Virus record (IMG/VR): IMGVR_UViG_3300014159_000004
Direction: 5' to 3' (one strand)
Source: an uncultured virus (IMG/VR IMGVR_UViG_3300014159_000004)
Taxonomy: Duplodnaviria; Heunggongvirae; Uroviricota; Caudoviricetes
DNA length: 33,188 nucleotides
The stretch's first letter is position 1; the number at the start of each line of letters is the position of its first letter. This document shows positions 2,158 through 14,333 of this stretch, one piece after another. The position numbers and the translations under genes were made by a program. The notes under the pieces were generated by a model, which did not search any database, was not told the origin of the DNA, and worked only from the letters and a program-made list of their open reading frames with translations.

Positions 2158-4056
2158 GTGCCCGTCCACTCCCGCGGCCGCGGGTGCTACCAGTGGGGCC
2201 AGCACGGCAAGGTCTACTGCGGCCCCGGCGCCCGCCAGAAAGCCGAGCGGCAGGGGCGGGCGGCGCACGCGCGCGGGTACGGCCTGCGCGAACCGTCGAG
2301 CGACTGGGAGGACGCGCTCGTCCGCGGCGACGCGCGCTACGTCCCCGCTGGTGTCGCACCGCAGATGCCGGGCGTCGTCGCGCGAGCGCGCGCGGCCGGC
2401 GCGCGCCCACCGCTCGAGTACGTGGGCGCCGGGATGACCGGCGTCGTCCTCTGCGCCGGCGACGTCGCGTACAAGGTCGCCCGGGACACGCGCCCGATCG
2501 ACCACCAGTTCTTCGAGGAGGAGGCCGATTGGCTCGCGGCGGCCTCGCAGGTCCCCGCGGTCGCGCCGCACGTCGCGCACCTGCACGACTTCGACCCCGA
2601 GAGCCTCGTCATCGTCCGCGACTGCGTACGCGCCGACCCGGAGCAATCCGCGTGGCGGTACGGCGAGGGCAAGCTCCACGACCTGCACCGACAGATCGAA
2701 CGGGACATGATCCCGTACGGCTGGACCGCGCCAGAGTTCAAGCCGGACAGCTATGTGCTGACGACCCGCGGGCCCGTGCTCGTCGATGCGTCGATGCCGT
2801 CCCGGGTCGGCAATGAGCTCGCGCAATACGTCGAGGCGGTCGTCGCCGACGAGCGGCCGCTCTGGACGACTCGGCCCGAGGACCTGGCGTTCGCGGTCCG
2901 GATGGAGGCTGGACGAACGCTCACGCAGGAGGAGTCGGACCGGCTCGAGGCGATGATCGCGCGTCGGTGGTCTGCGCGTGCCGGTGAGGTGAGGGAGCGG
3001 CGCTTGCGTGAAGTGCGTGAGCCGAATCTGTCGTACTTGCTCGGGCCCATGGGAACGATCCGGGCCATCGGTCACGAGGACGGTCCCGAACCGCCGACGA
3101 ACGGGATCGCACGATACCGATCCGAGCACGGTAGCTACCGGTACGTCTACTACGTCCGCGGCGAACCGGTGAGCGCCATCCAGGTGATGGCGCGCGACAA
3201 GAAACACGGTCGCGTCGCGAACGTGTGGACGGCTCCGCACGCGCGTCGAAACGGATACGCGACCAAGCTTATCCAGCAAGCCAGGAAAGATTTCAAGACT
3301 GTCGAGCACTCCGACGCCCTGTCAGCGGACGCAGTTGCGTGGATTGATCGAGTCGGAGAGGCGCGAACCGTTCTCGCCGAGAACAGCGACTGGATACTCG
3401 TGGCGCCGCTCGCGCAAGCGCAGATCTTGGGCGGTGCCTACCTTGCGAGTTCCGACGGCCGATTTGTCATCTTCGCTCGCCGGTATCGCGTCGGCGACAA
3501 GGGTCGCCGCGAGTACCGAATCGAATTTCAGACCGTCGAGTATCTGGGCGGTGACTCTAGGAGAGGTGGCGAAAACCGAACCCTCTATGAGGGGCAGAAT
3601 CTAGCCGTTCTCCAGGGTCGGGCCCGAAGATCGCCTCGTACGCGGCACGCGGCAGCAAGATGCGCATTTCAACGACCGGATCGTTGGCGCTTATCGTCTC
3701 GTCTCTCGGACCCTCGCGCTCTGCGAGACGCTGGACCCGATCGGGGATCTTGGCCGAAGCGAGCATCTCGGGCGCGCCCCGCATCAGCGCGCGCACTTCG
3801 GACGGGGTCCTGGGCGAGCGAGTCACAGCAGCCCTTCCGAGGCATTGTCCTGCCAGATTGTTGCCGCACGGATGTACCCGAGAGCCACGCGCTCCGACTT
3901 GTGCCTGGTCTGCTTCATGATACTCGCCAGGGACTTCCCCTTGATCGCTGCGGTCGTCGCGAAACCAGATCGGAGCGAGTGACCCGACACGAGATCGGCG
4001 TCGAGGCCGGCACTCTTCGCCAAGCGCTTGACGATCTCCGAGGCGGTCCGATCTGA
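2158..4056 (+). CDS. Multidomain protein: small phage-type N-terminal module, protein-kinase-like domain and GNAT acetyltransferase; C-terminal ~150 aa doubtful
   Basis: YVGAGMTG loop, VAYK, EFKPDSY and LVDAS kinase-like motifs; VANVWTAPHARRNGYATKL GNAT motif A; tail overlaps the recombinase antisense. Confidence 0.6.
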   Translation: MPVHSRGRGCYQWGQHGKVYCGPGARQKAERQGRAAHARGYGLREPSSDWEDALVRGDARYVPAGVAPQMPGVVARARAAGARPPLEYVGAGMTGVVLCAGDVAYKVARDTRPIDHQFFEEEADWLAAASQVPAVAPHVAHLHDFDPESLVIVRDCVRADPEQSAWRYGEGKLHDLHRQIERDMIPYGWTAPEFKPDSYVLTTRGPVLVDASMPSRVGNELAQYVEAVVADERPLWTTRPEDLAFAVRMEAGRTLTQEESDRLEAMIARRWSARAGEVRERRLREVREPNLSYLLGPMGTIRAIGHEDGPEPPTNGIARYRSEHGSYRYVYYVRGEPVSAIQVMARDKKHGRVANVWTAPHARRNGYATKLIQQARKDFKTVEHSDALSADAVAWIDRVGEARTVLAENSDWILVAPLAQAQILGGAYLASSDGRFVIFARRYRVGDKGRREYRIEFQTVEYLGGDSRRGGENRTLYEGQNLAVLQGRARRSPRTRHAAARCAFQRPDRWRLSSRLSDPRALRDAGPDRGSWPKRASRARPASARALRTGSWASESQQPFRGIVLPDCCRTDVPESHALRLVPGLLHDTRQGLPLDRCGRRETRSERVTRHEIGVEAGTLRQALDDLRGGPI

Positions 4057-4722
4057 AATCGGGAAGATCCTCCCCTCGGCGATCCCAGCCTCGGCGAGGT
4101 ATTTCCAAAGCGCTCGGACCGGGCAGAGCGGTCCGCGCCCCATTGAAACACCGCAAACCTGCCCTTCGCCTTCTTGGTCCGTCTTCGAGCTCCGTAACGT
4201 GACCATCAAGCCGTCCGGGCTGAACACGACGTCGTCAACGACCAGGGCGACGAGCTCCGACCGACGCAGGGCGGCAGCCCAGCCGAGGAGCACGAGCGCG
4301 CGATCCCTGGCGCTGGCGTTCAAGAGCATCGCAGCGAGGTCGGTGTCCTGTAGGGGGGTAGCCTTGCGCTGCGCGGTACGCAGCTTTCGACGCAGACCTT
4401 TGAGCGTCTCGCGGATCGCGGGGTGGTCCGGCCACTCCACGGCCGCGTCCTTGTGCGCCCGACGGAGGGCGGAGACCGCCCGGTCGATGGTCGCGATCTT
4501 GTGATCCAGGCTCAGGTGGGCCAGATACGCCACGATCGTCTCTGGACGGGCCGGGAGCGTCGCGAGGCCGTGAGGAGCTGCCCATGCTTGAAAAGCCCGC
4601 CAGTCCGCCGCGTAGCCTCGGCGCGTGGCGCTGGTGCGCTTGGCCTCCGCCGCTTCGGCGGCGATGGCGAGGAGAGACGGGAGAGAGTGTGTGGAAACGA
4701 GCGCATTCGCCTTGTCCGCCAT
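3823..4722 (-). CDS. Tyrosine recombinase (Cre-like, SAM-like N-domain)
   Basis: TRRGYAADW N-domain; catalytic RDRAL..LRRSEL, SKTDQ, GHSLRSG, RHKS..GY. Confidence 0.95.
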   Translation of the reverse strand: MADKANALVSTHSLPSLLAIAAEAAEAKRTSATRRGYAADWRAFQAWAAPHGLATLPARPETIVAYLAHLSLDHKIATIDRAVSALRRAHKDAAVEWPDHPAIRETLKGLRRKLRTAQRKATPLQDTDLAAMLLNASARDRALVLLGWAAALRRSELVALVVDDVVFSPDGLMVTLRSSKTDQEGEGQVCGVSMGRGPLCPVRALWKYLAEAGIAEGRIFPISDRTASEIVKRLAKSAGLDADLVSGHSLRSGFATTAAIKGKSLASIMKQTRHKSERVALGYIRAATIWQDNASEGLL

Positions 4723-5058: not shown

Positions 5059-5997
5059 CTATGCGAGCCCCGCACTGACCCGCTGCCGCTGGATCCGCGT
5101 CCGGACGTCCTCCGGGTCGACCCAGCTCGCCGGCGCGCCTGCGGGGCGCCAGTAGACCGAACAGGCCACTAAACCGTCGGCGATGACGATCCACGCGCCC
5201 GCGCGCGGCAGCTCAGGTGGTTGGCCGGACTGCTGCCAGCGCAGAAAGAGGGCGCGTGCAGCCTCCGCCGGAGTGAGTCCGACCAGCATGGGGGCACCGC
5301 ACGGCAGGTAGATGTTCGCGGTCCTGCCAGAAAGGACAATGAGTCCGCTTGCTTCGGCGAGCGCGCCGTCGAGGGGGAACGTGCGGATCCGGATGTCACC
5401 GAGCGCGATGTCATGCGACACCGACTCCAGCGGCTCGATCGCCTGCTGGACGAGTCGCGCGAGTCGCAACCGTTCCGCCGACGTGTCCGGCGACCCGACC
5501 GACGGGTGCGCTGGCGAGGATCCCGGCGAGCCACCCGCTGGGTGCCACGGGGGCGCTGCTGCGGGGTGGCCCGGAGGTTGACCTGGGGACCAGCCTACGG
5601 GGTCACCCTGCGGGTAACCTGGGAACTGTCCCGCAGGTTGACCCGCGGTCGGCTCGGGAGAACCTGGCGAGATCCTGCGGACCATCCAGAGATGGCCCAC
5701 TCGCTCGACATAGCCGAGCGCCCCAAGCCTGTGCAGCAGCGCGTTGCCCGCGAGCGAGTGGCTCCCGCGCGATCTCGGGCTCCCGCTGCGGTCCAGTCGG
5801 TCCGGCCACATCTTCATCGAGAAGTCGGCCGCCGATAGAGCCCCGCTGCGGAGCACGTCGATCGCTCGACTGACTTCGGCCGGTTTCAGGTCGTACACGC
5901 CATCGCCAGGATAACGCGTGAGAACCTCAGCGCAATACTGGCGTGCTAGGTTGCTGGTCTCTCGGGGGCGCGGGAGGTTCTCGGAGAACATGGACAT
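5059..5997 (-). CDS. Hypothetical protein with possible winged-helix N-region and Pro/Gly-rich linker
   Basis: Long ORF from ATG 5997 with ~8-aa repeats (GQPAGQFPGYPQGDPVGWSPGQPPGHP). Confidence 0.55.
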   Translation of the reverse strand: MSMFSENLPRPRETSNLARQYCAEVLTRYPGDGVYDLKPAEVSRAIDVLRSGALSAADFSMKMWPDRLDRSGSPRSRGSHSLAGNALLHRLGALGYVERVGHLWMVRRISPGSPEPTAGQPAGQFPGYPQGDPVGWSPGQPPGHPAAAPPWHPAGGSPGSSPAHPSVGSPDTSAERLRLARLVQQAIEPLESVSHDIALGDIRIRTFPLDGALAEASGLIVLSGRTANIYLPCGAPMLVGLTPAEAARALFLRWQQSGQPPELPRAGAWIVIADGLVACSVYWRPAGAPASWVDPEDVRTRIQRQRVSAGLA

Positions 5998-6376
5998 CAC
6001 TGCGCCGCCGAAAGAGCTGCAGATCGCCTTCTGCACCACCTGCAAGGGCCGAACTCCCCACATCCGGGAGACGCTGCCAGTCAACCTGCATGGCAACGCG
6101 CGGGCCCGGTTCGTCCTCGTCAACTACAACAGCCCCGACCAGCTCGACGATCTGCTCCGCGAGCGGCACATGGGCGACATCGATAGCGGCCGACTGAGCG
6201 TCTACCGGTTCACCGAGCCAGGACCGTTCCGGATGGCGCACGCCAAGAACCTAGCCCATCGATTGGCGATCTCAGAGGGAGCGGACATCCTCGTGAACCT
6301 AGACGCGGACAACTTCGCTGGGCAGGCTTTCGACGCGTACGTGGCCGAGCGGCTCAGCGCACACGTTGACGATTGA
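5990..6376 (+). pseudogene. Glycosyltransferase family 2 (GT-A), N-terminal half only
   Basis: IAFCTTCKGR, FVLVNYNSPD, AHAKNLAHR and LVNLDADNF (DxD); stops ~20 aa after DxD. Confidence 0.65.
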
Positions 6377-6385
6377 CGATTCTAT

Positions 6386-6414
6386 TTGCGCGACTCCATA
6401 ACGTGAGCTAAGGG
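6386..6414 (+). promoter_or_regulatory. Candidate sigma70-type promoter for leader and tRNA operon
   Basis: TTGCGC-N17-TAAGGG, 10 nt before the leader ATG (near-leaderless). Confidence 0.4.
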
Positions 6415-6424
6415 TTCCTCTGCG

Positions 6425-6541
6425 ATGAAACGCGCCGGCTCAACAGCCACGTATACCGAGCGGTCCGAAAGGGCTGCCTGGGACACGTGCGCCGTCGTGA
6501 TCGGGCGCCCTTTCCAGAGCAATCCGGGTCACACCATGTAG
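6425..6541 (+). CDS. Putative attenuator leader peptide (38 aa) MKRAGSTATYTERSERAAWDTCAVVIGRPFQSNPGHTM
   Basis: ATG 6425 to TAG 6539-6541; 31 distinct codons; ends 30 nt before an intrinsic terminator. Confidence 0.6.
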   Translation: MKRAGSTATYTERSERAAWDTCAVVIGRPFQSNPGHTM

Positions 6542-6570
6542 GGCAGCTTCGCGAATACGCAACGTAGCGC

Positions 6571-6610
6571 GAGGCCGCCCGGAGAAGACCCGAGGCGGCT
6601 TTTTTCATTT
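6571..6610 (+). terminator. Intrinsic terminator (attenuator) directly before the first tRNA
   Basis: GAGGCCGCCCGG-AGAAGAC-CCGAGGCGGCTTT stem-loop followed by TTTTTTCATTT. Confidence 0.85.
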
Positions 6611-6611
6611 C

Positions 6612-6689
6612 GGGTCGAGCGCTGGGACGCGACGGTGTCTGTAAAACACTGGCTTTCATGCTCGCTGGGTTCGATTCCCAGGCGACCCA
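6612..6689 (+). tRNA. tRNA-Tyr(GTA)
   Basis: Anticodon arm ggtgt-CTGTAAA-acact; GGTTCGATTCC T-arm. Confidence 0.85.
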
Positions 6690-6736
6690 CGAGGAGAGGA
6701 GGACACGATGAAACGCACCGGTCCAAAAGAAAGCGA

Positions 6737-6808
6737 GGGACGTTAGCTCCAGGGCGGAGCGGCAGCCTTTTAAGCTGCGCGGGCCGGGTTCGATCCCCGG
6801 GCGTCCCA
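6737..6808 (+). tRNA. tRNA-Lys(TTT)
   Basis: gcagc-CTTTTAA-gctgc; full cloverleaf. Confidence 0.9.
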
Positions 6809-6818
6809 CGACCCACGC

Positions 6819-6889
6819 GCGCCGGTAGCTCGAAGGTCGAGCAGGTGGCTCTTAACCACTCGGCGAGAGTTCGATTCTCTCTCGGCGCA
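6819..6889 (+). tRNA. tRNA-Lys(CTT)
   Basis: ggtgg-CTCTTAA-ccact; full cloverleaf. Confidence 0.9.
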
Positions 6890-6890
6890 C

Positions 6891-6957
6891 TGGGGATTCG
6901 ATGGTCGACAGGTGGTCTCTGAAGCCGCCGACGGTGGTTCGATTCCACCATCCCCAA
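6891..6957 (+). tRNA. tRNA-Gln(CTG)
   Basis: gtggt-CTCTGAA-gccgc; short D-arm. Confidence 0.85.
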
Positions 6958-6963
6958 CCGATG

Positions 6964-6998
6964 GCCCGACGCACACGGGCTATTCGCTCCTTGACAAC
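6964..6998 (+). promoter_or_regulatory. boxB-like hairpin plus boxA-like antitermination site
   Basis: GCCCG-N7-CGGGC hairpin then GCTCCTTGACAAC, similar to rrn boxA GCTCTTTAACA. Confidence 0.5.
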
Positions 6999-7080
6999 CT
7001 GGACGCACGTGACGCGCGGGCGCGAGCTCGCGGGCGGTCTCTGCGAAGTCACGACGCGCGGGCACGTAGCCGCGCAACAT

Positions 7081-7152
7081 TGCGATGCAGCATGAAGGTC
7101 ATGCGCCCGGCTGTTAACCGGAGAGAAGCGGGTTCGACTCCTGCCTTCGCAG
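7081..7152 (+). tRNA. tRNA-Asn(GTT)
   Basis: ccgg-CTGTTAA-ccgg; GGTTCGACTCC. Confidence 0.88.
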
Positions 7153-7158
7153 CTCGAC

Positions 7159-7227
7159 GCCGTCTTGTACCTGGGGTCAACGCGCTCTCGTAAGGCGCGT
7201 GGCGGGGTTCGAATCCCCGAGGCGGCT
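7159..7227 (+). tRNA. tRNA-Thr(CGT)
   Basis: gcgct-CTCGTAA-ggcgc. Confidence 0.85.
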
Positions 7228-7232
7228 CTCAC

Positions 7233-7305
7233 GTCCCGTTCGACTTCTTGGGCAGGTCGCCGGATTCTCGATCCGGACAGAGGGGTTCGAATCCCCTACG
7301 GGACG
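7233..7305 (+). tRNA. tRNA-Glu(CTC)
   Basis: ccgga-TTCTCGA-tccgg. Confidence 0.9.
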
Positions 7306-7310
7306 CTCTT

Positions 7311-7382
7311 GGTCCGCTTTCTCCTGGTGGGGTGGTCGGATTTTCAACTCGACTTCGACGGGTTCGATCCCCGTGCGGATCA
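7311..7382 (+). tRNA. tRNA-Glu(TTC)
   Basis: tcgga-TTTTCAA-ctcga (one mismatch). Confidence 0.75.
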
Positions 7383-7393
7383 CGAAGTAGTAC

Positions 7394-7466
7394 GCCGCGA
7401 GAGCTGGTGAGGTCATAGCGCCCGGTTGAAGCCCGGGAGAACTCCGCTCGATACGGAGTCGCGGCA
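7394..7466 (+). tRNA. tRNA-Phe(GAA)
   Basis: cccgg-TTGAAGC-ccggg; atypical T-loop CTCGATA. Confidence 0.8.
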
Positions 7467-7477
7467 CGAAGTGGTAT

Positions 7478-7549
7478 CAGGGTGAGGTGTTTGTGGTAGC
7501 ACGCTCCGTTCGGGCCGGAGTGGTGCGGGTTCGACTCCCGCCGCCCTGA
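7478..7549 (+). tRNA. tRNA-Pro(CGG)
   Basis: ctccg-TTCGGGC-cggag. Confidence 0.88.
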
Positions 7550-7551
7550 CT

Positions 7552-7628
7552 GTGACCGTGGTGTAGTGGTTTCTGCACGGCTGGTTGTGGCCCAGCAGGT
7601 ACGAGTTCAATCCTCGTCGGTCACCCCA
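7552..7628 (+). tRNA. tRNA-His(GTG)
   Basis: gctgg-TTGTGGC-ccagc; C73 discriminator and encoded CCA. Confidence 0.9.
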
Positions 7629-7629
7629 C

Positions 7630-7701
7630 CTCCTCGTCCCGCCGGATGCGGGCGGCGCACTCCTAAGGCGCACGTGCCGGGTCCGACTCCCGGCGAGGAG
7701 A
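7630..7701 (+). tRNA. tRNA-Arg(CCT)
   Basis: gcgca-CTCCTAA-ggcgc; ctcctcg/cgaggag acceptor. Confidence 0.8.
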
Positions 7702-7707
7702 CGAAAT

Positions 7708-7780
7708 GCCCCGTGACGCGCCTGGTGGCGCGGTCAGCTTGTCACGCTGCGCGAGACGGATTCGATTTCCGTACGGGGCG
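7708..7780 (+). tRNA. tRNA-Asp(GTC)
   Basis: cagc-TTGTCAC-gctg; G73. Confidence 0.85.
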
Positions 7781-7788
7781 CTGCGCCT

Positions 7789-7856
7789 GGGTCCATGCAT
7801 CGGATGCAGCTCGGTCTCCAAAACCGAGGATGAGGGTTCGACTCCTTCTGGGCCCG
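7789..7856 (+). tRNA. tRNA-Trp(CCA)
   Basis: tcggt-CTCCAAA-accga; short D-arm. Confidence 0.85.
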
Positions 7857-7866
7857 CGAAGTAAAC

Positions 7867-7937
7867 GGGCTGCTCGTCCAACGCGAGGACACCGCTTTCG
7901 CACTGCGGAGATGGGGGTTGGATTCCCCCGCGGTCCA
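7867..7937 (+). tRNA. tRNA-Ala(CGC)
   Basis: ccgct-TTCGCAC-tgcgg; G3:U70 pair present. Confidence 0.8.
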
Positions 7938-7945
7938 CTGGCTTT

Positions 7946-8016
7946 GCCCATGTCCGACGGTCGGGCTCCTCCTCGGTAAGGAGGCGCTGCGGGTTCAACT
8001 CCCGACGTGGGCTCCA
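7946..8016 (+). tRNA. tRNA-Thr(GGT)
   Basis: cctcc-TCGGTAA-ggagg; encoded CCA. Confidence 0.8.
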
Positions 8017-8018
8017 AC

Positions 8019-8086
8019 GCCGATCGGTCCAGGGACCACGGCCCCTTTGTATGGGCCACAGACGCGTTCGATTCGCGTGATCGGCT
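8019..8086 (+). tRNA. tRNA-Thr(TGT)
   Basis: gcccc-TTTGTAT-gggcc; GCCGATC acceptor is Thr-like. Confidence 0.7.
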
Positions 8087-8090
8087 CCGT

Positions 8091-8161
8091 GCGGGTGTAG
8101 GTGACGGTCACCGGCGCGCCTTCCAAGCGTTGCTACCCGGGTTCGATTCCCGGCATCCGCT
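8091..8161 (+). tRNA. tRNA-Gly(TCC)
   Basis: gcgc-CTTCCAA-gcgt; GCG start and U73. Confidence 0.88.
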
Positions 8162-8175
8162 CTGACGCTATTTGC

Positions 8176-8247
8176 GCGGGCGAGTCGGCAAGGTGCCGAG
8201 CGTGGTTGCCATCCACGTCCAGGCGAGTTCGATTCTCGTCGCCCGCT
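8176..8247 (+). tRNA. tRNA-Gly(GCC)
   Basis: cgtgg-TTGCCAT-ccacg; U73. Confidence 0.88.
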
Positions 8248-8252
8248 CTAGT

Positions 8253-8321
8253 GAGCCGATCTTCCGGCGAAGGACGCTGATTGCAACCTAGCGAAGCCCG
8301 GTTCAACTCCGGGTCGGCTCT
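8253..8321 (+). tRNA. tRNA-Cys(GCA)
   Basis: gctga-TTGCAAC-ctagc; U73. Confidence 0.8.
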
Positions 8322-8353
8322 CCGGGCGAGGCGCAGCGATGCGCCGAGCCTGC

Positions 8354-8424
8354 GCGCTCGTCCCGGCGGATCCGGGCATGGCACTTCTAAGGCCGTTGAC
8401 TCGTTTCGACTACGAGCGAGCGTT
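8354..8424 (+). tRNA. tRNA-Arg(TCT)
   Basis: tggca-CTTCTAA-ggccg. Confidence 0.75.
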
Positions 8425-8426
8425 CC

Positions 8427-8499
8427 CTCGTCGTTCCGGCGGATTTCCGGACCGGAGTTTCCGAAACTTCGTGCCCGGGTCCGACTCCCGGCGACGAGA
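8427..8499 (+). tRNA. tRNA-Arg(CCG)
   Basis: ggagt-TTCCGAA-acttc. Confidence 0.78.
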
Positions 8500-8500
8500 C

Positions 8501-8570
8501 CTCCCTGCCAGCGGACCTGGCGTCGACGCTACGAACGTTGATTGCGGCCGTTCAACTCGGTCCAGGGAGA
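8501..8570 (+). tRNA. tRNA-Arg(ACG)
   Basis: cgacg-CTACGAA-cgttg. Confidence 0.8.
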
Positions 8571-8571
8571 C

Positions 8572-8647
8572 CGCGGGGTGGCGTAGATTTAGTCGCCAGG
8601 TGGGCCCATAACCCTCCCGATGCCGGATGCAACACCGGTCTCCGCAA
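8572..8647 (+). tRNA. Initiator-type tRNA-fMet(CAT)
   Basis: CGCGGGG start with C1:A72 mismatch; GGG/CCC anticodon stem; loop CCCATAA; atypical T-loop. Confidence 0.8.
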
Positions 8648-8649
8648 CC

Positions 8650-8719
8650 GCCGACGACGACCGGGATCGAGCGCGCTCTCATAAGGCGCTGCAGTGGGGT
8701 TCGACTCCCCACGTCGGCA
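8650..8719 (+). tRNA. tRNA-Met(CAT), elongator (or Ile2)
   Basis: gcgct-CTCATAA-ggcgc. Confidence 0.8.
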
Positions 8720-8720
8720 C

Positions 8721-8788
8721 CGGAGGATACCTGGCGGGAGCATGCGCCCTACAAGCGCGAGCGCGGGGTCCGATTCCCCGGCCTCCGA
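8721..8788 (+). tRNA. tRNA-Val(TAC)
   Basis: tgcgc-CCTACAA-gcgcg. Confidence 0.75.
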
Positions 8789-8789
8789 C

Positions 8790-8868
8790 CGGACGCGTGC
8801 CTAAGCCGGCGGTCCCGGCGCACGTCTTATGAGCGTGTGGCTCGAGGGTTCAACTCCTGCGCGTCCGA
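8790..8868 (+). tRNA. tRNA-Ile(TAT), atypical
   Basis: cacgt-CTTATGA-gcgtg; cggacgc/gcgtccg acceptor; elongated D region. Confidence 0.65.
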
Positions 8869-8874
8869 CTCAAT

Positions 8875-8946
8875 GCGAGGCATGGCTGCTGGTGCAGCCA
8901 CCGGCTCGACACGCCGGCTAGGAGGGTTCGATCCCCTCGCCTCGCA
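8875..8946 (+). tRNA. tRNA-Val(GAC)
   Basis: ccggc-TCGACAC-gccgg. Confidence 0.85.
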
Positions 8947-8948
8947 CC

Positions 8949-9020
8949 CCGCCCAGAGGCCCGGTTGGCCTGCGATTGCTGATAACGATCGCGCGCTGCG
9001 TTCAACTCGCAGTGGGCGGA
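8949..9020 (+). tRNA. tRNA-Ile(GAT)
   Basis: gattg-CTGATAA-cgatc. Confidence 0.82.
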
Positions 9021-9044
9021 CAACGTGCTAGATCGAACCGCGCG

Positions 9045-9566
9045 ATGGAACCGCAGACGCTCGTGCTCACCCCGCACATGACTCCCCACCGGATCGCCGG
9101 TTGGCAGGAAGCGATCGTGCTCGTCTACACGGACAAGGTCGACGTGCTCGAGGAGTACGAGGCGACGATCTCGAGCCCGTCGGTGACGTTGCAGGTGCCC
9201 GCGGTGCTGCGCCTGCGCAAGGAGATGTCGCTCTTCAAGAAGGGCACGAAGTACAGCCCAGCGAACGTCATGCTCCGTGACAAGCACACGTGCTGCTACT
9301 GCGGCCAGAAGAAGCGGCCGCGCGATCTCAACATCGACCACGTCGTCCCGCGCGCGCAGGGCGGCAAGACGACGTGGCTGAACTGCGTCTCCTCGTGCCC
9401 GAGCTGCAACCGCCGCAAGGGGGCGCGCACGCCGGCGCAGGCAGGACTGAAGATGCACTTCCAGCCGCACGTGCCCAGGCAGTTGCCGTTCGCGCCGCTG
9501 CTGCTCATCGCGAAGGTGCCCGACCTATGGGTCCCCTACCTGTCGGCGAGCGCGCAGACGGCGTAG
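9045..9566 (+). CDS. HNH endonuclease (McrA/HNH_5-like) inside the tRNA array
   Basis: RDKHTCCYCG...NIDHVVPRAQGGKTTWLNCVSSCPSCNRRKG. Confidence 0.93.
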   Translation: MEPQTLVLTPHMTPHRIAGWQEAIVLVYTDKVDVLEEYEATISSPSVTLQVPAVLRLRKEMSLFKKGTKYSPANVMLRDKHTCCYCGQKKRPRDLNIDHVVPRAQGGKTTWLNCVSSCPSCNRRKGARTPAQAGLKMHFQPHVPRQLPFAPLLLIAKVPDLWVPYLSASAQTA

Positions 9567-9776: not shown

Positions 9777-9860
9777 GTGCCTCGAGCGGGACTCGAACCC
9801 GCAAGCTCCGAAGAGCGGCGATTTTTAGGACCGCCTGGTCTACCGTTCCTCCACCGAGGC
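9777..9860 (-). tRNA. tRNA-Leu(TAA)
   Basis: Reverse complement gcggt-CCTAAAA-atcgc; long variable arm. Confidence 0.85.
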
Positions 9861-9865
9861 CCTCG

Positions 9866-9946
9866 TACTCCGGGCGCGAGTCGAACGCGCATGCCTTGCG
9901 GCACCCGATCTTGAATCGGGCGTGGATACCGTTTCACCACCGGAGC
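9866..9946 (-). tRNA. tRNA-Leu(CAA)
   Basis: Reverse complement cccga-TTCAAGA-tcggg. Confidence 0.88.
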
Positions 9947-9956
9947 ATTCACTTCG

Positions 9957-10039
9957 TACGCGGGGAGGGAGTTGAACCCTCACGCCCTCTCGGGCACGAC
10001 CACCTCAAGGTCGCGTGACTGCCATTCCACCACCCGCGT
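9957..10039 (-). tRNA. tRNA-Leu(GAG)
   Basis: Reverse complement cgacc-TTGAGGT-ggtcg. Confidence 0.88.
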
Positions 10040-10112
10040 GGGTAGTGGGTCAGTTTGAGTTTCGCGTCATGACGCGCTTGCGTGACCGGTCAAGCATGGT
10101 CAAGCTCGCGGC

Positions 10113-10430
10113 ATGGCGATTCTACGTGAGCGTGTGGCGTGGTCGAAGCCGAGGGCTAGGCGTGGTCCGGACCTGAGCCCAGACGAACAGAAGGCGGTCA
10201 AGAAGGCTCTTGCGTTCCTCGCCAAGCGCCACGGCTCCCTCGTGAAGCTGTCCGCCGCGATGGGCCTGAAGCCAGACGCGGTCGTCCATGCGGCCAGAGA
10301 GCGCGGGAGCGTTACGGCGGGCGTCGCGCTCCGGGCTGCTCGCGCTGCCGGAGTGCCTCTGGAAGACCTCCTAGCCGGCCGGTGGCCCGAGGCTGGCACT
10401 TGCCCTCTCTGCGGCCGGAAGGCAGGATGA
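10113..10430 (+). CDS. Small HTH-like regulator with C-terminal CxxC
   Basis: SLVKLSAAMGLKPDAV helix pattern; CPLCG. Confidence 0.6.
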   Translation: MAILRERVAWSKPRARRGPDLSPDEQKAVKKALAFLAKRHGSLVKLSAAMGLKPDAVVHAARERGSVTAGVALRAARAAGVPLEDLLAGRWPEAGTCPLCGRKAG

Positions 10431-10434
10431 AGGC

Positions 10435-10701
10435 GTGCCTAAGCGGTCAAGCAAGAGCCCGAAACGCCCGACGGACGTGAACTCGCTGGCGGCGTCGATC
10501 GTCGCGGCGGCAACCGACGAGACGCCCCCGGAAGAGAAGGCCGAGCCGACACCCGAGGAACTGGCGCACGCGGCGGCCGTGGCCCTCGGAAGGCTCGGTG
10601 GATTGAAGGGCGGAAGAGCGCGAGCGGAGAGTCTGTCGAAGAAGAAACGTAGTGACATCGCCAAGAAAGCGGCGAAGGCGAGGTGGAGCGCAAAGCCGTG
10701 A
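10435..10701 (+). CDS. Small basic protein of the type found beside IS1-like transposases
   Basis: RPTDVNSLA...AAVALGRLGGLKGGRARAESLS...IAKKAAKARW. Confidence 0.75.
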   Translation: MPKRSSKSPKRPTDVNSLAASIVAAATDETPPEEKAEPTPEELAHAAAVALGRLGGLKGGRARAESLSKKKRSDIAKKAAKARWSAKP

Positions 10702-10752
10702 CGCGTTCGCGATTGACGAGCCGGACCGTTGCGTGATCGCATGCATCGTCAA

Positions 10753-11730
10753 ATGCCTGAGGACGAAAAAAAGCCGCCGTACATCAAGCAGCCGGCCAAG
10801 GACGATCAGCGTCCATTTCAGCGCGTGCTGAGCGAGCACGATCTATTTGCTTCGCAGCGATTGACCCGGCGTGGCCTGCTTCAAAAAATCGAGGCCGAGA
10901 CGACCGGTGAGAGGTCCGCCACCATCGGCTTCATTGGCCGCGGCGCGATCGATCCCAGAGACATCACGGCCTTTGGCGATGTCCTGATGTCGGTCGGTGA
11001 TGTCGATGTCCTCAACCTGATCATCGATAGTCCTGGCGGCGACGGTTCTACGGCGGAGAAACTGATCGAACTGTGCCGCGCCTACTGCAAGACTTTCCGG
11101 GTAATGATCCCTAACCGCGCAAAGAGTGCGGGCACGATCATCGCGCTCGGCGCCGATGAGATCGTGATGGGGCACTGCTCCGAATTGGGTCCAATCGACG
11201 CGCAGGTGCCTGTGATCGTGGGCGAGATCCCTCGATACATCTCGGCACAGTCGTTTATCGACGCTCAGTTGGATCTACAGGCTGAATTTGCAAAGCGCAT
11301 CGCCGCGAATGGAAAGGCGGACGTGCGCGACATCCTGCAACAACTTGCCGCGCTCAACCTGCCGTTTATTGACCACTGCAAGAAACTCATGGGCTTCTCG
11401 CGTGACGTTGCAGAGAAGAATCTGGCCGCGCACATGTTTCGGGATGTTCAGCCCGATGCCGAGCGCAACCAAAAGGTTGCAAAGGTCATCAAGGGGCTCT
11501 CGCATCCAGAGAACTTTCAGGTGCACTCGCGAATGATCGACGGCAACACGGCCAAAACCAAGCTGGGGCTAAATGTGCGGCTTCTCGGCAAAGACGACGA
11601 ACTGTGGGCCGCGATCTGGCAGTACTACATTCGCGCGGACGTTTTTCTCTCGGGCGCCCACGGCCCCGGGGCGTCTAAGCTGGTCGAATCACGGGTGGAG
11701 AGCCTACATCTAACGGCGGAACTGGAATGA
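10753..11730 (+). CDS. ClpP/S49-like serine peptidase (SDH_sah-type); start uncertain (10729-10753)
   Basis: LNLIIDSPGG, AKSAGTIIALGADEIVMG, SELGPIDAQ. Confidence 0.85.
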   Translation: MPEDEKKPPYIKQPAKDDQRPFQRVLSEHDLFASQRLTRRGLLQKIEAETTGERSATIGFIGRGAIDPRDITAFGDVLMSVGDVDVLNLIIDSPGGDGSTAEKLIELCRAYCKTFRVMIPNRAKSAGTIIALGADEIVMGHCSELGPIDAQVPVIVGEIPRYISAQSFIDAQLDLQAEFAKRIAANGKADVRDILQQLAALNLPFIDHCKKLMGFSRDVAEKNLAAHMFRDVQPDAERNQKVAKVIKGLSHPENFQVHSRMIDGNTAKTKLGLNVRLLGKDDELWAAIWQYYIRADVFLSGAHGPGASKLVESRVESLHLTAELE

Positions 11731-11753
11731 CTATTGCTACGCGAGAGGGGACC

Positions 11754-11969
11754 ATGAACCGACCGACCGATAACCAGAATCCGGATGGCCACAGCTCCGA
11801 GGTCAGTCAGGCGCTGGAACTGTTCAACAGTACAGATGCAGCGCGGGACGCCGCTACAGCTCTGGAGGTGATGCGCTTGGCTGGTGCTAGCCGACGTGCG
11901 CGCACAGAACGCCGGTTCAGTCTGTCCATCAGTGGCGGGTATGTTCGATGCGAGGACGACGGCGCTTAA
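11754..11969 (+). CDS. Hypothetical protein
   Basis: GAGGGG RBS before ATG; short ORF. Confidence 0.4.
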   Translation: MNRPTDNQNPDGHSSEVSQALELFNSTDAARDAATALEVMRLAGASRRARTERRFSLSISGGYVRCEDDGA

Positions 11970-12046
11970 AGTCGCTGTTGACAATTTGTCGCTGTCGATG
12001 ACCCTACAGGGGCAATGCAGTCACGATGACAGTCAAAGTGAACCGG

Positions 12047-12079
12047 ATGCTTGACTGAGCCTCAACGGTCAAGCATACT
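12047..12079 (+). promoter_or_regulatory. Transposase promoter overlapped by an inverted-repeat operator
   Basis: TTGACT-N17-CATACT; IR ATGCTTGAC/GTCAAGCAT (12047-12055 and 12068-12076). Confidence 0.7.
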
Positions 12080-12086
12080 GTCCAGT

Positions 12087-12959
12087 ATGAACACGCTGGA
12101 CGCCGCCACCCGCACCCGCATCGTCTCGGCCCTGGTCGAGGGGAACTCGATCCGCGCGACGTGCCGCATGACCGGCGCGGCGAAGGGCACCGTCTTGAAG
12201 CTCCTGGCGGACCTCGGCGCCGCCTGCCGCGCGTACCACGACGCGAACGTGCGCGGCCTGCACTGCAAGCGGCTCCAGTGCGACGAGATCTGGTCCTTCT
12301 GCGGCGCCAAGGACAAGAATGTCCTGCCCGACGAGGAAGGCTTCGGGCGCGGCTCGATCTGGACGTGGACCGCGCTCGACGCGGACACGAAGCTGATCGC
12401 CGGCTACCACATCGGCACGCGCGACGCTGGCTGCGCCTACGAGTTCATGACCGACCTCGCGTCACGCATCGAGACGCGCGTGCAGCTCACGACCGACGGA
12501 CACAAGGCGTACATCAACGCGGTCGCCGACGCGTTCGGGCCGTCGAATATCGACTACGCGATGCTCGTGAAGCTGTTTGGCGAGACGCCGGCCGGCGCAG
12601 GTCGCTACAGCCCGCCCGCGTGCATCGGGATCGAGATGCGCCCGATCATGGGCGAGCCGGACATGGAGCACGTGTCGACCTCGTACGTCGAACGCCAGAA
12701 CCTCACGATGCGGATGTCGATGCGCCGGTTCACGCGGCTCACGAACGCGTTCTCGAAGAAGTGCGAGAACCTCGCGCACGCGGTCGCGCTCCACTTCATG
12801 CATTACAACTTCTGCCGCGTGCACCAGACGCTCCGCGTGACGCCGGCCATGGCCGCGGGGCTCACGGATCATGTGTGGGAGATCGGCGAATTGATCGCGC
12901 TCATGCCGAAGCCGGTCGCGAAGCCGTGGGGGAGCGTGAAGCGCGCGGCGGTCGCCTGA
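12087..12959 (+). CDS. IS1-family DDE transposase, single ORF
   Basis: HTH (EGNSIRATCRMTG), QCDEIWSF, LTTDG, STSYVERQNLTMR...RFTRLT. Confidence 0.9.
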   Translation: MNTLDAATRTRIVSALVEGNSIRATCRMTGAAKGTVLKLLADLGAACRAYHDANVRGLHCKRLQCDEIWSFCGAKDKNVLPDEEGFGRGSIWTWTALDADTKLIAGYHIGTRDAGCAYEFMTDLASRIETRVQLTTDGHKAYINAVADAFGPSNIDYAMLVKLFGETPAGAGRYSPPACIGIEMRPIMGEPDMEHVSTSYVERQNLTMRMSMRRFTRLTNAFSKKCENLAHAVALHFMHYNFCRVHQTLRVTPAMAAGLTDHVWEIGELIALMPKPVAKPWGSVKRAAVA

Positions 12960-12963
12960 TCGG

Positions 12964-13356
12964 TCAACGCTGCGGCACCTTTGCCTTGAAGCCTCGCGGG
13001 GTGAATTGCGAACGGTGGAGCCCGATCCGCATCCTAGATAGGAGCGCGTCTGCAATGCACGTCTGTTTGCGGCCTGGTTGCAACGTATCGGTGTCCCCGG
13101 CCTCTACCTCTCGAAGGCCTCGGTAGAACACGTAGCTTTCGTGGGTGATGAACGGGTGCGCGTCCGGATCGCCGGGGCGAAGGATGCACGAGCGGTCCAC
13201 GAACCTATCCACCGTCGTGACGTTCACGATCGTGGCGCACACCGCGAGCGAATAGTCGGGCGTGTAGACAGCCAGGACGACCCACAGGTGATCGACGACC
13301 GCCGTCTTCGACGGGTTGAGCAGAAACGCATCCCCCGCCTCGACGGTTCCCCTCAC
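12964..13356 (-). CDS. Putative toxin, PemK/MazF-like fold
   Basis: GDAFLL...HLWVVL...IVNVTT...HPFITHESYV; coupled downstream of a Panacea gene. Confidence 0.55.
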   Translation of the reverse strand: MRGTVEAGDAFLLNPSKTAVVDHLWVVLAVYTPDYSLAVCATIVNVTTVDRFVDRSCILRPGDPDAHPFITHESYVFYRGLREVEAGDTDTLQPGRKQTCIADALLSRMRIGLHRSQFTPRGFKAKVPQR

Positions 13357-13934
13357 GACGAATGGATCAACCTATCGACTGCTGCGAGATACTTTGCGCG
13401 CTTGGCGCGATCGCTGATTGCTTCGTCGTTCTCGCCGACCGCGCGGAGAATGTCAGCGGCCGGCAATGGTGCAACCTTCGCGGGCTTGGGGTGCTTCCAC
13501 TCCGGAAGCCCGTGGACCACGTCGATCAGATGCGTGTATGAAACACGCTTATACTTCTTCGCGAGATCTGTCAGAACGCCGACGTCGTAATCCGAAAGCT
13601 GATCGTCGCCCGGGTCCTCTACAAGCTCGACGTTGTAGCCTTGGGTGCGGATGCAGTGGTCCCAAAGACTGTCGGCGACCTCGACCTCCCCCTTGATGCA
13701 GTTGTAGACCTCACTCAGAACAGGCCCGTTCGCCATGGACACGAACGTAGAGCCGGTGATCGGCTGACCGGTCTCGATCAGCGATTGCCTGTCGGCGAGG
13801 TACAGCTCCTTCAGGATGGACGTGTAGTTCTCGGTACCACCAGCCTCGCGCAGGAGAACGGCAGCAGCTTGCACGGCTCGACGTTCGTCAAACCGGAACC
13901 TGAGTTCGCCCCCCGCTTCCAATAGCATCGTCAA
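13353..13934 (-). CDS. Panacea (DUF4065/SocA-like) antitoxin
   Basis: LKELYLADRQSL..TGQPITG..FVSMANGPVLSEVY. Confidence 0.85.
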   Translation of the reverse strand: MTMLLEAGGELRFRFDERRAVQAAAVLLREAGGTENYTSILKELYLADRQSLIETGQPITGSTFVSMANGPVLSEVYNCIKGEVEVADSLWDHCIRTQGYNVELVEDPGDDQLSDYDVGVLTDLAKKYKRVSYTHLIDVVHGLPEWKHPKPAKVAPLPAADILRAVGENDEAISDRAKRAKYLAAVDRLIHSS

Positions 13935-14069
13935 CCACCATCTACCGATCCGCGCCTGCCCACGCGTTCAGGCTAACGCTAACGTATGACATCTGCAAGC
14001 CTCAATGCTTGAGCGGTCACGCAACGCGCCGCGTCAGCCCAACTCAAACTGACCCACTACCCCCGCGTG

Positions 14070-14137
14070 TCCGGGCCGAGGGGATCGAACCCTCTTCGCC
14101 GGATTCAAAATCCGGCTCCCCACCATGGGTGGCCCGA
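14070..14137 (-). tRNA. tRNA-Gln(TTG)
   Basis: Reverse complement ccgga-TTTTGAA-tccgg. Confidence 0.82.
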
Positions 14138-14138
14138 G

Positions 14139-14221
14139 TGCGTTGGGAGGGAGTTGAACCCTCACGACCTTGCGGTCACTGCGGTCTGAACGCAGCGCGG
14201 ATACCGTTTCGCCACCAACGC
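14139..14221 (-). tRNA. tRNA-Leu(CAG)
   Basis: Reverse complement ctgcg-TTCAGAC-cgcag; long variable arm. Confidence 0.9.
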
Positions 14222-14333
14222 GCGTGACTCTGTCACCAGCCCCTATAAGGGCAGGACAAGACGCAAGCGTTGCGATAGGCGGAACGTGTGCACGACGGGG
14301 ATAACACTGACACGTCTCCGAGCAGCGCGCAAG

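Follow-up and report, generated by a model that had tools for sequence, protein, structure and literature searches.

The window analysed here is a stretch of 33,188 nucleotides from the uncultured virus record IMGVR_UViG_3300014159_000004 (Caudoviricetes), which as a whole measures 117 kb with about 68% G+C. It carries a large array of tRNA genes on the plus strand, starting with tRNA-Tyr at 6612, and immediately before this array a leader (6373-6611) with a promoter-like site, a short open reading frame (ORF) and a terminator hairpin. This leader is the subject of the present study, and from its sequence and fold models we consider that it is probably a ribosome-mediated (leader-peptide) transcription attenuator gating the array. 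The following features were identified at the locus:

6373-6402, plus strand: promoter-like site with TTGACG (6373-6378), an 18-nt spacer and CATAAC (6397-6402)
6409-6414, plus strand: weak Shine-Dalgarno-like TAAGGG, 10 nt before the ATG, its strength judged by eye
6425-6541, plus strand: leader ORF of 38 sense codons and a TAG stop codon
6502-6512, plus strand: partner of the terminator 5' arm proposed by the initial annotation, inside the ORF; its complementarity is real and unconserved
6541-6553, plus strand: 5' strand of the antiterminator (region 2), starting at the last base of the stop codon
6556-6566, plus strand: small hairpin between regions 2 and 3, capping the antiterminator helix
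6568-6582, plus strand: shared strand (region 3), which is both the 3' strand of the antiterminator and the 5' arm of the terminator
6572-6611, plus strand: intrinsic terminator with stem 6572-6582 / 6590-6601, loop 6583-6589, T-run 6600-6605 and tail CATTTC
6612 to about 9768, plus strand: tRNA array (Tyr, Lys, Lys, Gln, Asn, Thr and further genes), the proposed regulated unit

The peptide encoded by the leader ORF is MKRAGSTATYTERSERAAWDTCAVVIGRPFQSNPGHTM. Direct counting confirmed the composition given by the initial annotation, an annotation made from the letters and ORF translations of the window alone, namely 38 codons, of which 31 are distinct, and 19 amino acids with leucine as the only one missing. 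This diversity was above chance: at least 19 amino acids were found in 364 of the 147,143 stop-free 38-codon windows of the genome (0.25%) and in 754 of 300,000 composition-matched shuffles (0.25%), and 19 amino acids in 235 of 16,675 windows of likely proteins. The precise combination present in the ORF, with Leu as the sole absentee, occurred in 12 of the 300,000 shuffles and in three of the 147,143 genome windows, all three of which probably overlap the leader ORF. The number of 31 distinct codons is by itself weaker evidence, being attained by 5.8% of the shuffles. A regulatory codon run for one amino acid was absent, and each of the 19 amino acids is used at most five times. The promoter-like site in front of the ORF was matched by a looser rule and was not listed by a stricter scan requiring T at position 6 of the -10 element. 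A look-up of RNA sequencing runs for 6000-9000 returned none.

The ORF ends 30 nt before the hairpin. The strong terminator that had been noted before the first tRNA is present, with a hairpin of -20.6 kcal/mol (6566-6611) followed by TTTTTT and a tail ending 1 nt before tRNA-Tyr, although a simple terminator scan missed it because of the 7-nt loop and bulged stem. The gap between the T-run and tRNA-Tyr is 5 nt, and therefore there is no room for a separate promoter there. In the minimum free energy fold, 6541-6553 pairs with 6568-6580, and the terminator is regained when 6541-6553, which lies within the footprint of a terminating ribosome, is masked. The antiterminator proposed earlier was a helix between 6502-6512 and 6571-6581; this helix exists (-16.4 kcal/mol), but the conserved antiterminator is 6541-6553 / 6568-6580. 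The competing helix between 6472-6479 and 6541-6548 proposed at the same time also exists (-13.4 kcal/mol).

The effect of ribosome position was modelled by forcing a 30-nt footprint to remain unpaired and computing the frequency of the terminator. For RNA starting at 6411, the terminator probability was about 0.01 when the RNA was ribosome-free or the ribosome stood at codons 1-34, and 0.8-0.94 when it stood at codons 36-39. In the model, this switching arises because the 6541-6553 / 6568-6580 helix competes for the terminator 5' arm. The same pattern was found in one of 300 dinucleotide shuffles of the upstream part and in four of 1415 natural genome segments joined to the same terminator. 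When the modelled RNA began upstream of 6400, its fold without a ribosome was mixed (terminator 0.16-0.81). A footprint at the stop codon still differed in effect from one at codon 30 for 5' ends from 6340 on, but this contrast was nearly gone at 6300, where the stop-codon value was 0.15.

Relatives of the leader were sought mainly through a gene of the array:

8976-9566: HNH endonuclease gene, within the tRNA array

An alignment of the HNH protein with three metagenome relatives, used as query, retrieved 80 viral loci, many with large tRNA arrays. We inspected 14 arrays whose first tRNA lies at least 400 nt inside the locus, 13 from these loci and L034 from an earlier single-query HNH search, and recognised a homologous leader in eight of them (L070, L081, L084, L088, L090, L091, L099 and L108). 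Two hairpin-based pattern scans added L156 and L157, giving a family of the window and 10 contigs. Among other contigs, L160 equals L157 over the region compared, L148-L151, L158 and L159 repeat contigs already counted, and L152-L155 matched the hairpin scans with terminators in other contexts and were set aside by eye. L034, an unrelated array, has a promoter, leader and terminator, but it was rejected as a family member given its 26-codon ORF with 14 amino acids and only partial switch. The single HNH query had yielded one viral locus (L034), nine metagenome loci and one unrelated match among genome contigs. Among the metagenome loci, L058 is 99.96% identical to the window, L059 proved to be the record of the window itself, and L060 and L061 are genuine relatives whose contigs begin within the array. 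Relatives of a downstream protease-like gene were not found. A conserved 693-aa protein used as query gave 15 loci; a search for the leader in 20 records (14 of these loci and six others) returned short chance matches only, and among 13 of the 20 records scanned for tRNAs, nine had some, none of them in a compact array by reading.

The 10 diverged contigs contain the promoter, an ORF of 31-50 codons, the hairpin and the T-rich tail, and the module stands directly before a tRNA array in 10 of the 11 family members, the sequence of L156 and L157 covering only the first three to four tRNAs. Seven relatives (L081, L084, L090, L091, L099, L156 and L157) have arrays starting with Tyr-Lys(-Lys), as in the window; that of L108 starts with Trp, and ARAGORN called no Tyr in L070 and L088. 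Leader ORFs were present in 11/11, and in all of them the tail ends 58-77 nt beyond the stop codon. All 20 amino acids are encoded in seven of the 10 relatives (L081, L088, L091, L099, L108, L156 and L157), 19 in L084 and in the window, 18 in L090 (49 codons) and 17 in L070 (31 codons). Other ORFs of 31-50 codons at the same ten loci attained 19 amino acids in 17 of 465 cases and 20 in six of 465, in comparison with at least 19 in 8/10 (Fisher p 7.5e-10) and all 20 in 7/10 (Fisher p 1.9e-10) of the relatives' leader ORFs. Composition-matched shuffles gave p-values of 0.0001-0.004 for nine of the 11 leaders (8/10 relatives). The median pairwise peptide identity among the leaders is 26%. On these comparisons, the amino-acid coverage is conserved and the peptide sequence is not.

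The initial annotation had also pointed to a coincidence between the lack of Leu codons in the ORF and the lack of a Leu tRNA downstream. This holds for the plus-strand block, which has tRNAs for 19 amino acids and none for Leu, but three Leu tRNAs lie on the minus strand directly after it (9777-10039) and a fourth at 14138-14221. The coincidence was rejected as a family rule (Fisher p 0.22 over nine leaders): seven relatives combine an ORF containing Leu with Leu tRNAs in the block on that strand, and the exception, L070, has Leu codons in its ORF with no Leu tRNA seen in the 7 kb after the leader.

Hairpins of 9-15 pairs with a T-rich tail were found in 11/11 leaders, with about five arm types by eye. 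For 10 of the 11 leaders, the strongest pairing that the 5' arm can form anywhere in the leader falls within -13 to +18 relative to the stop codon, a zone of about a quarter of leader positions (p ~8e-6 if the leaders are independent); the exception under that arm definition is the window, where 6502-6512 scores best. An alignment of the 11 stop-to-tail segments by MAFFT with RNAalifold was structurally wrong and gave four pairs only. We therefore relied on an alignment-free swap test, in which each arm was paired with the stop-proximal window of every leader. Cognate pairs had a mean of -21.1 kcal/mol versus -14.3 kcal/mol for swapped pairs, none of 100,000 permutations equalled the cognate mean, and the cognate window ranked first of 11 for eight of the 11 arms. 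These sequence data indicate that the antiterminator strand and the terminator arm co-vary. Both features that the initial annotation expected of homologous leaders, a conserved ORF of high diversity and covarying helices, were thus present, and together with the diversity above chance they support its proposal of a generalised-sensor attenuator.

Nascent transcripts were modelled with their 3' end at the terminator loop; in them, pairing between the 5' arm and the stop-proximal window had a probability of 0.52-0.80 in 11/11 leaders, and of 0.00-0.10 when the footprint was placed at the stop codon. A ribosome in mid-ORF left this pairing unchanged in nine leaders, with a change from 0.69 to 0.47 in L081 and from 0.76 to 0.81 in L091. 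Shuffled windows gave 0.03-0.24, except for L070 (0.61). Small hairpins at the boundary of regions 2 and 3 were also seen by eye in relatives. Promoter-like sites (TTGAC[ACG], a spacing of 16-19 nt and a -10 element) precede the ORF in 9/11 leaders. The end of the -10 element lies 7-36 nt from the start codon, and the short distances of 7-10 nt in L070, L108, L099 and L157 suggest very short or absent 5' leaders. Additionally, the last bases before the first tRNA (6606-6611 in the window, and in 10 relatives) are nearly constant as C[GA]TTTC, even in L090 and L099, where the T-run is poor, which suggests that this motif has a second role, such as 5' processing of the first tRNA.

Taken together, the window has a short ORF after a promoter-like site, a predicted intrinsic terminator, a conserved antiterminator strand shared with that terminator, and a stop codon beside the 5' strand of the antiterminator. 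The parts, the geometry and the conservation of this module are observed; from them we infer that the ORF would be translated, that the hairpin would terminate transcription, and that two helices would compete kinetically in response to a physiological trigger. RNA synthesis would start at the promoter (6373-6402), and the first feature transcribed would be the 38-codon ORF with its 19 amino acids. In the model, the position of the ribosome decides the fold, since 6541-6553 can pair with 6568-6580, the strand that doubles as the terminator 5' arm. A ribosome keeping up with the polymerase would be at the stop codon, covering 6541-6553, while 6568-6601 is made; the terminator would then form and transcription would stop at the T-run, 5 nt before tRNA-Tyr. 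A ribosome lagging on any of the many codon types decoded slowly would leave 6541-6553 free to capture the emerging 5' arm, and read-through by the polymerase into about 30 tRNA genes would follow. With nearly every amino acid sampled once or twice, the ORF would act as a timer of overall elongation speed and not as a gauge of a single amino acid, and the outcome would be negative feedback on tRNA supply. Candidate triggers may include a mismatch with the host tRNA pool, tRNA-targeting defence and starvation. It is also possible, although we propose this more tentatively, that in phages whose tRNA sets are near-complete the decoding capacity is under closed-loop control: the leader ORF would time the first ribosome over about 40 codons of nearly all kinds and would open the entire array to transcription if decoding is slow at any step.

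Leader-peptide attenuators control the trp, his, leu, thr and pheA operons and, in multivalent form, ilvGMEDA, and in trpL the T-run ends at a distance from the stop codon similar to that in the window (about 65 nt). Such attenuators combine a short leader ORF, a stop codon by the antiterminator 5' strand and a strand shared with an intrinsic terminator, and the position of the first ribosome sets the decision, as it would here by our model. In contrast to them, the leader in the window and its relatives has no codon run for a single amino acid (17-20 amino acids, each used once to five times), would regulate tRNAs and not biosynthetic enzymes, belongs to a phage genome and matches no Rfam leader family; given the lack of a regulatory codon run, it would be a variant and not the standard form of leader-peptide attenuation (compare PMC1183508). 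In the pyrBI and pyrE attenuators, the ribosome reads into the terminator and prevents it, and UTP-dependent polymerase pausing is sensed. The present leader resembles these in having a leader peptide without special codons and an outcome set by ribosome-polymerase spacing, but a ribosome at the stop codon would here favour the terminator. T-box elements bind uncharged tRNA directly and need no ribosome. The leader shares with T-box riboswitches (PMC2879506) a choice between terminator and antiterminator that would report tRNA status; unlike them, it would be ribosome-based, and it has no T-box match.

Outside the amino-acid operons, the nearest mechanistic parallel is the attenuator of tet(M) in Tn916, which is described as depending on charged-tRNA levels (PMC3886932). 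In this system and in mef/mel(msrD), an attenuator of the translation-stress type for resistance genes (PMC4335068), a leader peptide and a terminator likewise report the general state of translation. More charged tRNA is described as giving more read-through in Tn916 tet(M), whereas slow decoding should do so here, and the output here, unlike that of both systems, would be tRNA, closing a feedback loop. The nearest functional parallel is the trn operon of Anabaena, with 26 tRNA genes, which is induced under translational stress via the repressor TrcR (PMC10272220). It is also a large accessory tRNA array kept low and turned on under translation stress, as proposed here, but it has a ribbon-helix-helix repressor at the promoter in place of a cis-acting ORF and RNA switch.

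Full-text literature searches, mostly read at the level of abstracts, yielded no report of tRNA genes preceded by a leader-peptide attenuator. If the more tentative closed-loop reading is true, this would be the first attenuator with tRNA as output and global elongation speed as input. The array would activate itself when the host is mismatched, during late infection as the tRNA of the host decays, or under attack on tRNAs by a defence nuclease, and would shut off once tRNA supply is restored. To our knowledge, the regulation of phage tRNA genes and the reason why some phages carry nearly full sets are largely unknown. Phage tRNAs have been tied in recent work to escape from tRNA-cleaving defences (PMC10264068 and PMC11464382). 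A self-sensing switch would explain how expression of a costly 3-kb array is limited to times of need and would make the ideas of tRNA supply and of counter-defence testable. For research and engineering it would offer a small natural device that senses the global speed of translation, and the 11 leaders, with their five arm types by eye, would serve as natural compensatory mutants.

Several observations weigh against such an attenuator. The T-runs after the stem are poor in L090 and L099, and the Shine-Dalgarno sequence is weak in the window and missing in several relatives. The ORFs of L070 (17 amino acids in 31 codons, p 0.04) and L090 (18 in 49, p 0.43) are not unusually diverse. The ORF starts were picked from promoter positions, and other in-frame starts alter the lengths: from its ATG, the L099 ORF has 34 codons and 19 amino acids, and the inner ATG of L081 gives 31 codons and 19. 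As the 11 leaders are homologous, p-values that assume independence are too favourable. When full-length RNAs were folded at equilibrium, a clean switch was seen in the window alone, and the relatives mostly favour the terminator at any footprint position; the switch, if real, must therefore be kinetic. Kinetic trapping is needed in the trp attenuator, too. In a tally against the ARAGORN anticodons, 10 of the 38 codons (CGC, GCC, GCT, CCT, TCA and TCC) have no cognate array tRNA; the 28 matching codons are no enrichment, and the codon-level correspondence between ORF and array suggested by the initial annotation did not hold. Rare codons number 9/38, a count attained by 10.7% of gene windows and thus not significant. 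No such module was seen by eye in four of the 14 inspected arrays (L083, L103, L104 and L110), L034 has a promoter, leader and terminator without a clear switch, and L069 has an HNH gene where the module would be. In L069 (2270-2620), a 102-codon HNH-type ORF ending 17 nt before tRNA-Tyr occupies the place of the leader ORF and hairpin, and the T-rich tail is the only remnant of the leader. This is a natural loss of the switch.

An alternative is that a conserved structured RNA leader works without translation, either as an element for processing or stability of the tRNA precursor or as a switch responding to a protein, a small molecule or tRNA, with the ORF as a by-product. The weak or absent Shine-Dalgarno sequences are consistent with this, as are the hairpin, the tail motif and the alternative helix, which are conserved even where the T-run is poor, and the somewhat better folding of the leader than of shuffles (z = -2.06). 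However, such a leader leaves unexplained the open frame of 31-50 codons in every family member, the stop codon at the antiterminator strand in 10/11, and the presence of all 20 amino acids in 7/10 relatives at so low a peptide identity. A Rfam scan of the window leader (and of the L034 leader) gave nothing meaningful: the sole match in the leader was RcsR1, whose 22 bits are below the gathering score of 60, the amino-acid leader families (Trp, His, Leu and Thr) did not match, and the Rfam T-box model gave no match even at E up to 10. We consider a leader of this kind unlikely.

It is similarly unlikely, in our estimation, that the same ribosome-coupled switch reads another input, such as ribosome availability, host shut-off, infection stage or, as in pyrBI, polymerase speed, with amino-acid diversity merely avoiding sensitivity to any single amino acid. 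The geometry would suit any coupling sensor, the codon match to the array is not enriched, and the arrays of L070, L084 and L090 include tRNAs for the amino acids that their ORFs lack. Against this stands the location of 10 of the 11 modules directly before tRNA arrays, where a speed sensor would most simply feed back on decoding. That the locus is only junction DNA, with the ordinary terminator of the truncated upstream gene and a chance ORF, seems very improbable. The upstream gene is indeed truncated right at the edge of the module, and GC-rich sequence gives many alternative pairings, but the module brings a promoter of its own and is found again in 10 other contigs, where the DNA preceding it is unrelated, with chance levels of 0.25% for the diversity and about 0.3% for the switch pattern; the low peptide identity also argues against the loci being assembly copies of one sequence. 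An attenuator that gates the array through ribosome position is the explanation we prefer.

The surroundings of the leader and array include the following genes:

3823-4722, minus strand: integrase gene
5918-6376, plus strand: truncated gene before the leader, retaining only about 150 N-terminal residues

The gene upstream of the leader has 32 relatives with a full length of 444-494 residues (checked in two, L002 and L003), and its remainder was found nowhere in the genome. Its stop codon lies inside the tandem TTGACGA TTGACGA, which also gives the -35 element of the leader. A tRNA array was present in none of the loci of the 32 relatives; L003 has one tRNA and L013 three scattered ones. Since the upstream gene is truncated and the loci of its relatives lack the array, the leader and array form a separate block joined at about 6360-6376. 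On this evidence the module travels as a unit. A blastn search with the array region against cultured phages and plasmids (distant mode) gave only single-tRNA or HNH matches.

In the plus-strand block, ARAGORN identified 23 tRNAs with its default settings and, once the threshold was relaxed, 29, which together with one tRNA-like gene comes close to the 31 genes counted by the initial annotation. The tRNA-like gene (8015-8101, plus strand) has an 8-nt anticodon loop, with a 4-base anticodon ttgt according to ARAGORN, and is probably the third Thr tRNA of that annotation. Only nine members of the block pass the Rfam tRNA threshold, and many score below it. Between tRNA-Tyr and tRNA-Lys, a second mini-ORF of 12 codons (6693-6747, plus strand; MKRTGPKESEGR) follows a strong GGAGAGGAGGA. 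This mini-ORF ends with a TAG inside the D-arm of tRNA-Lys, and 20 of its first 24 nt match the beginning of the leader ORF. Similar spacer ORFs were found in L081 (with a GTG start, by reading), L070, L088, L091 and L099, and none in L156 or L157. Immediately before its leader promoter, L081 contains the tail motif a second time (about 2560-2600; TTTCGTCGTTTG, preceded by GC-rich sequence). This copy may terminate the unit that comes before, or it may have arisen by duplication of part of the module.

The minus-strand Leu tRNA block has a promoter-like site but no terminator or Leu-rich leader ORF. As this Leu/Gln block lacks the module of ORF and terminator, control seems to differ between the plus- and minus-strand tRNA blocks. 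The regions upstream of the Leu/Gln block in the window (14222-14275) and in L060 (2848-2900), both on the minus strand, share the motif CAACGCTTGC ... TA..AGG. The block is contiguous in L060 and is interrupted in the window by a segment of about 4 kb (10032-14070), which is bounded by inverted repeats at 10032-10061 and 14041-14070 (30 nt, 93% complementary) and has a second inverted-repeat pair at 10078-10097 and 14005-14024. The segment carries genes for an IS1-like DDE transposase, a SocA/Panacea-domain protein and a ClpP-like protease, as well as a Cro-like ORF, and it looks like a transposon insertion or an invertible segment.

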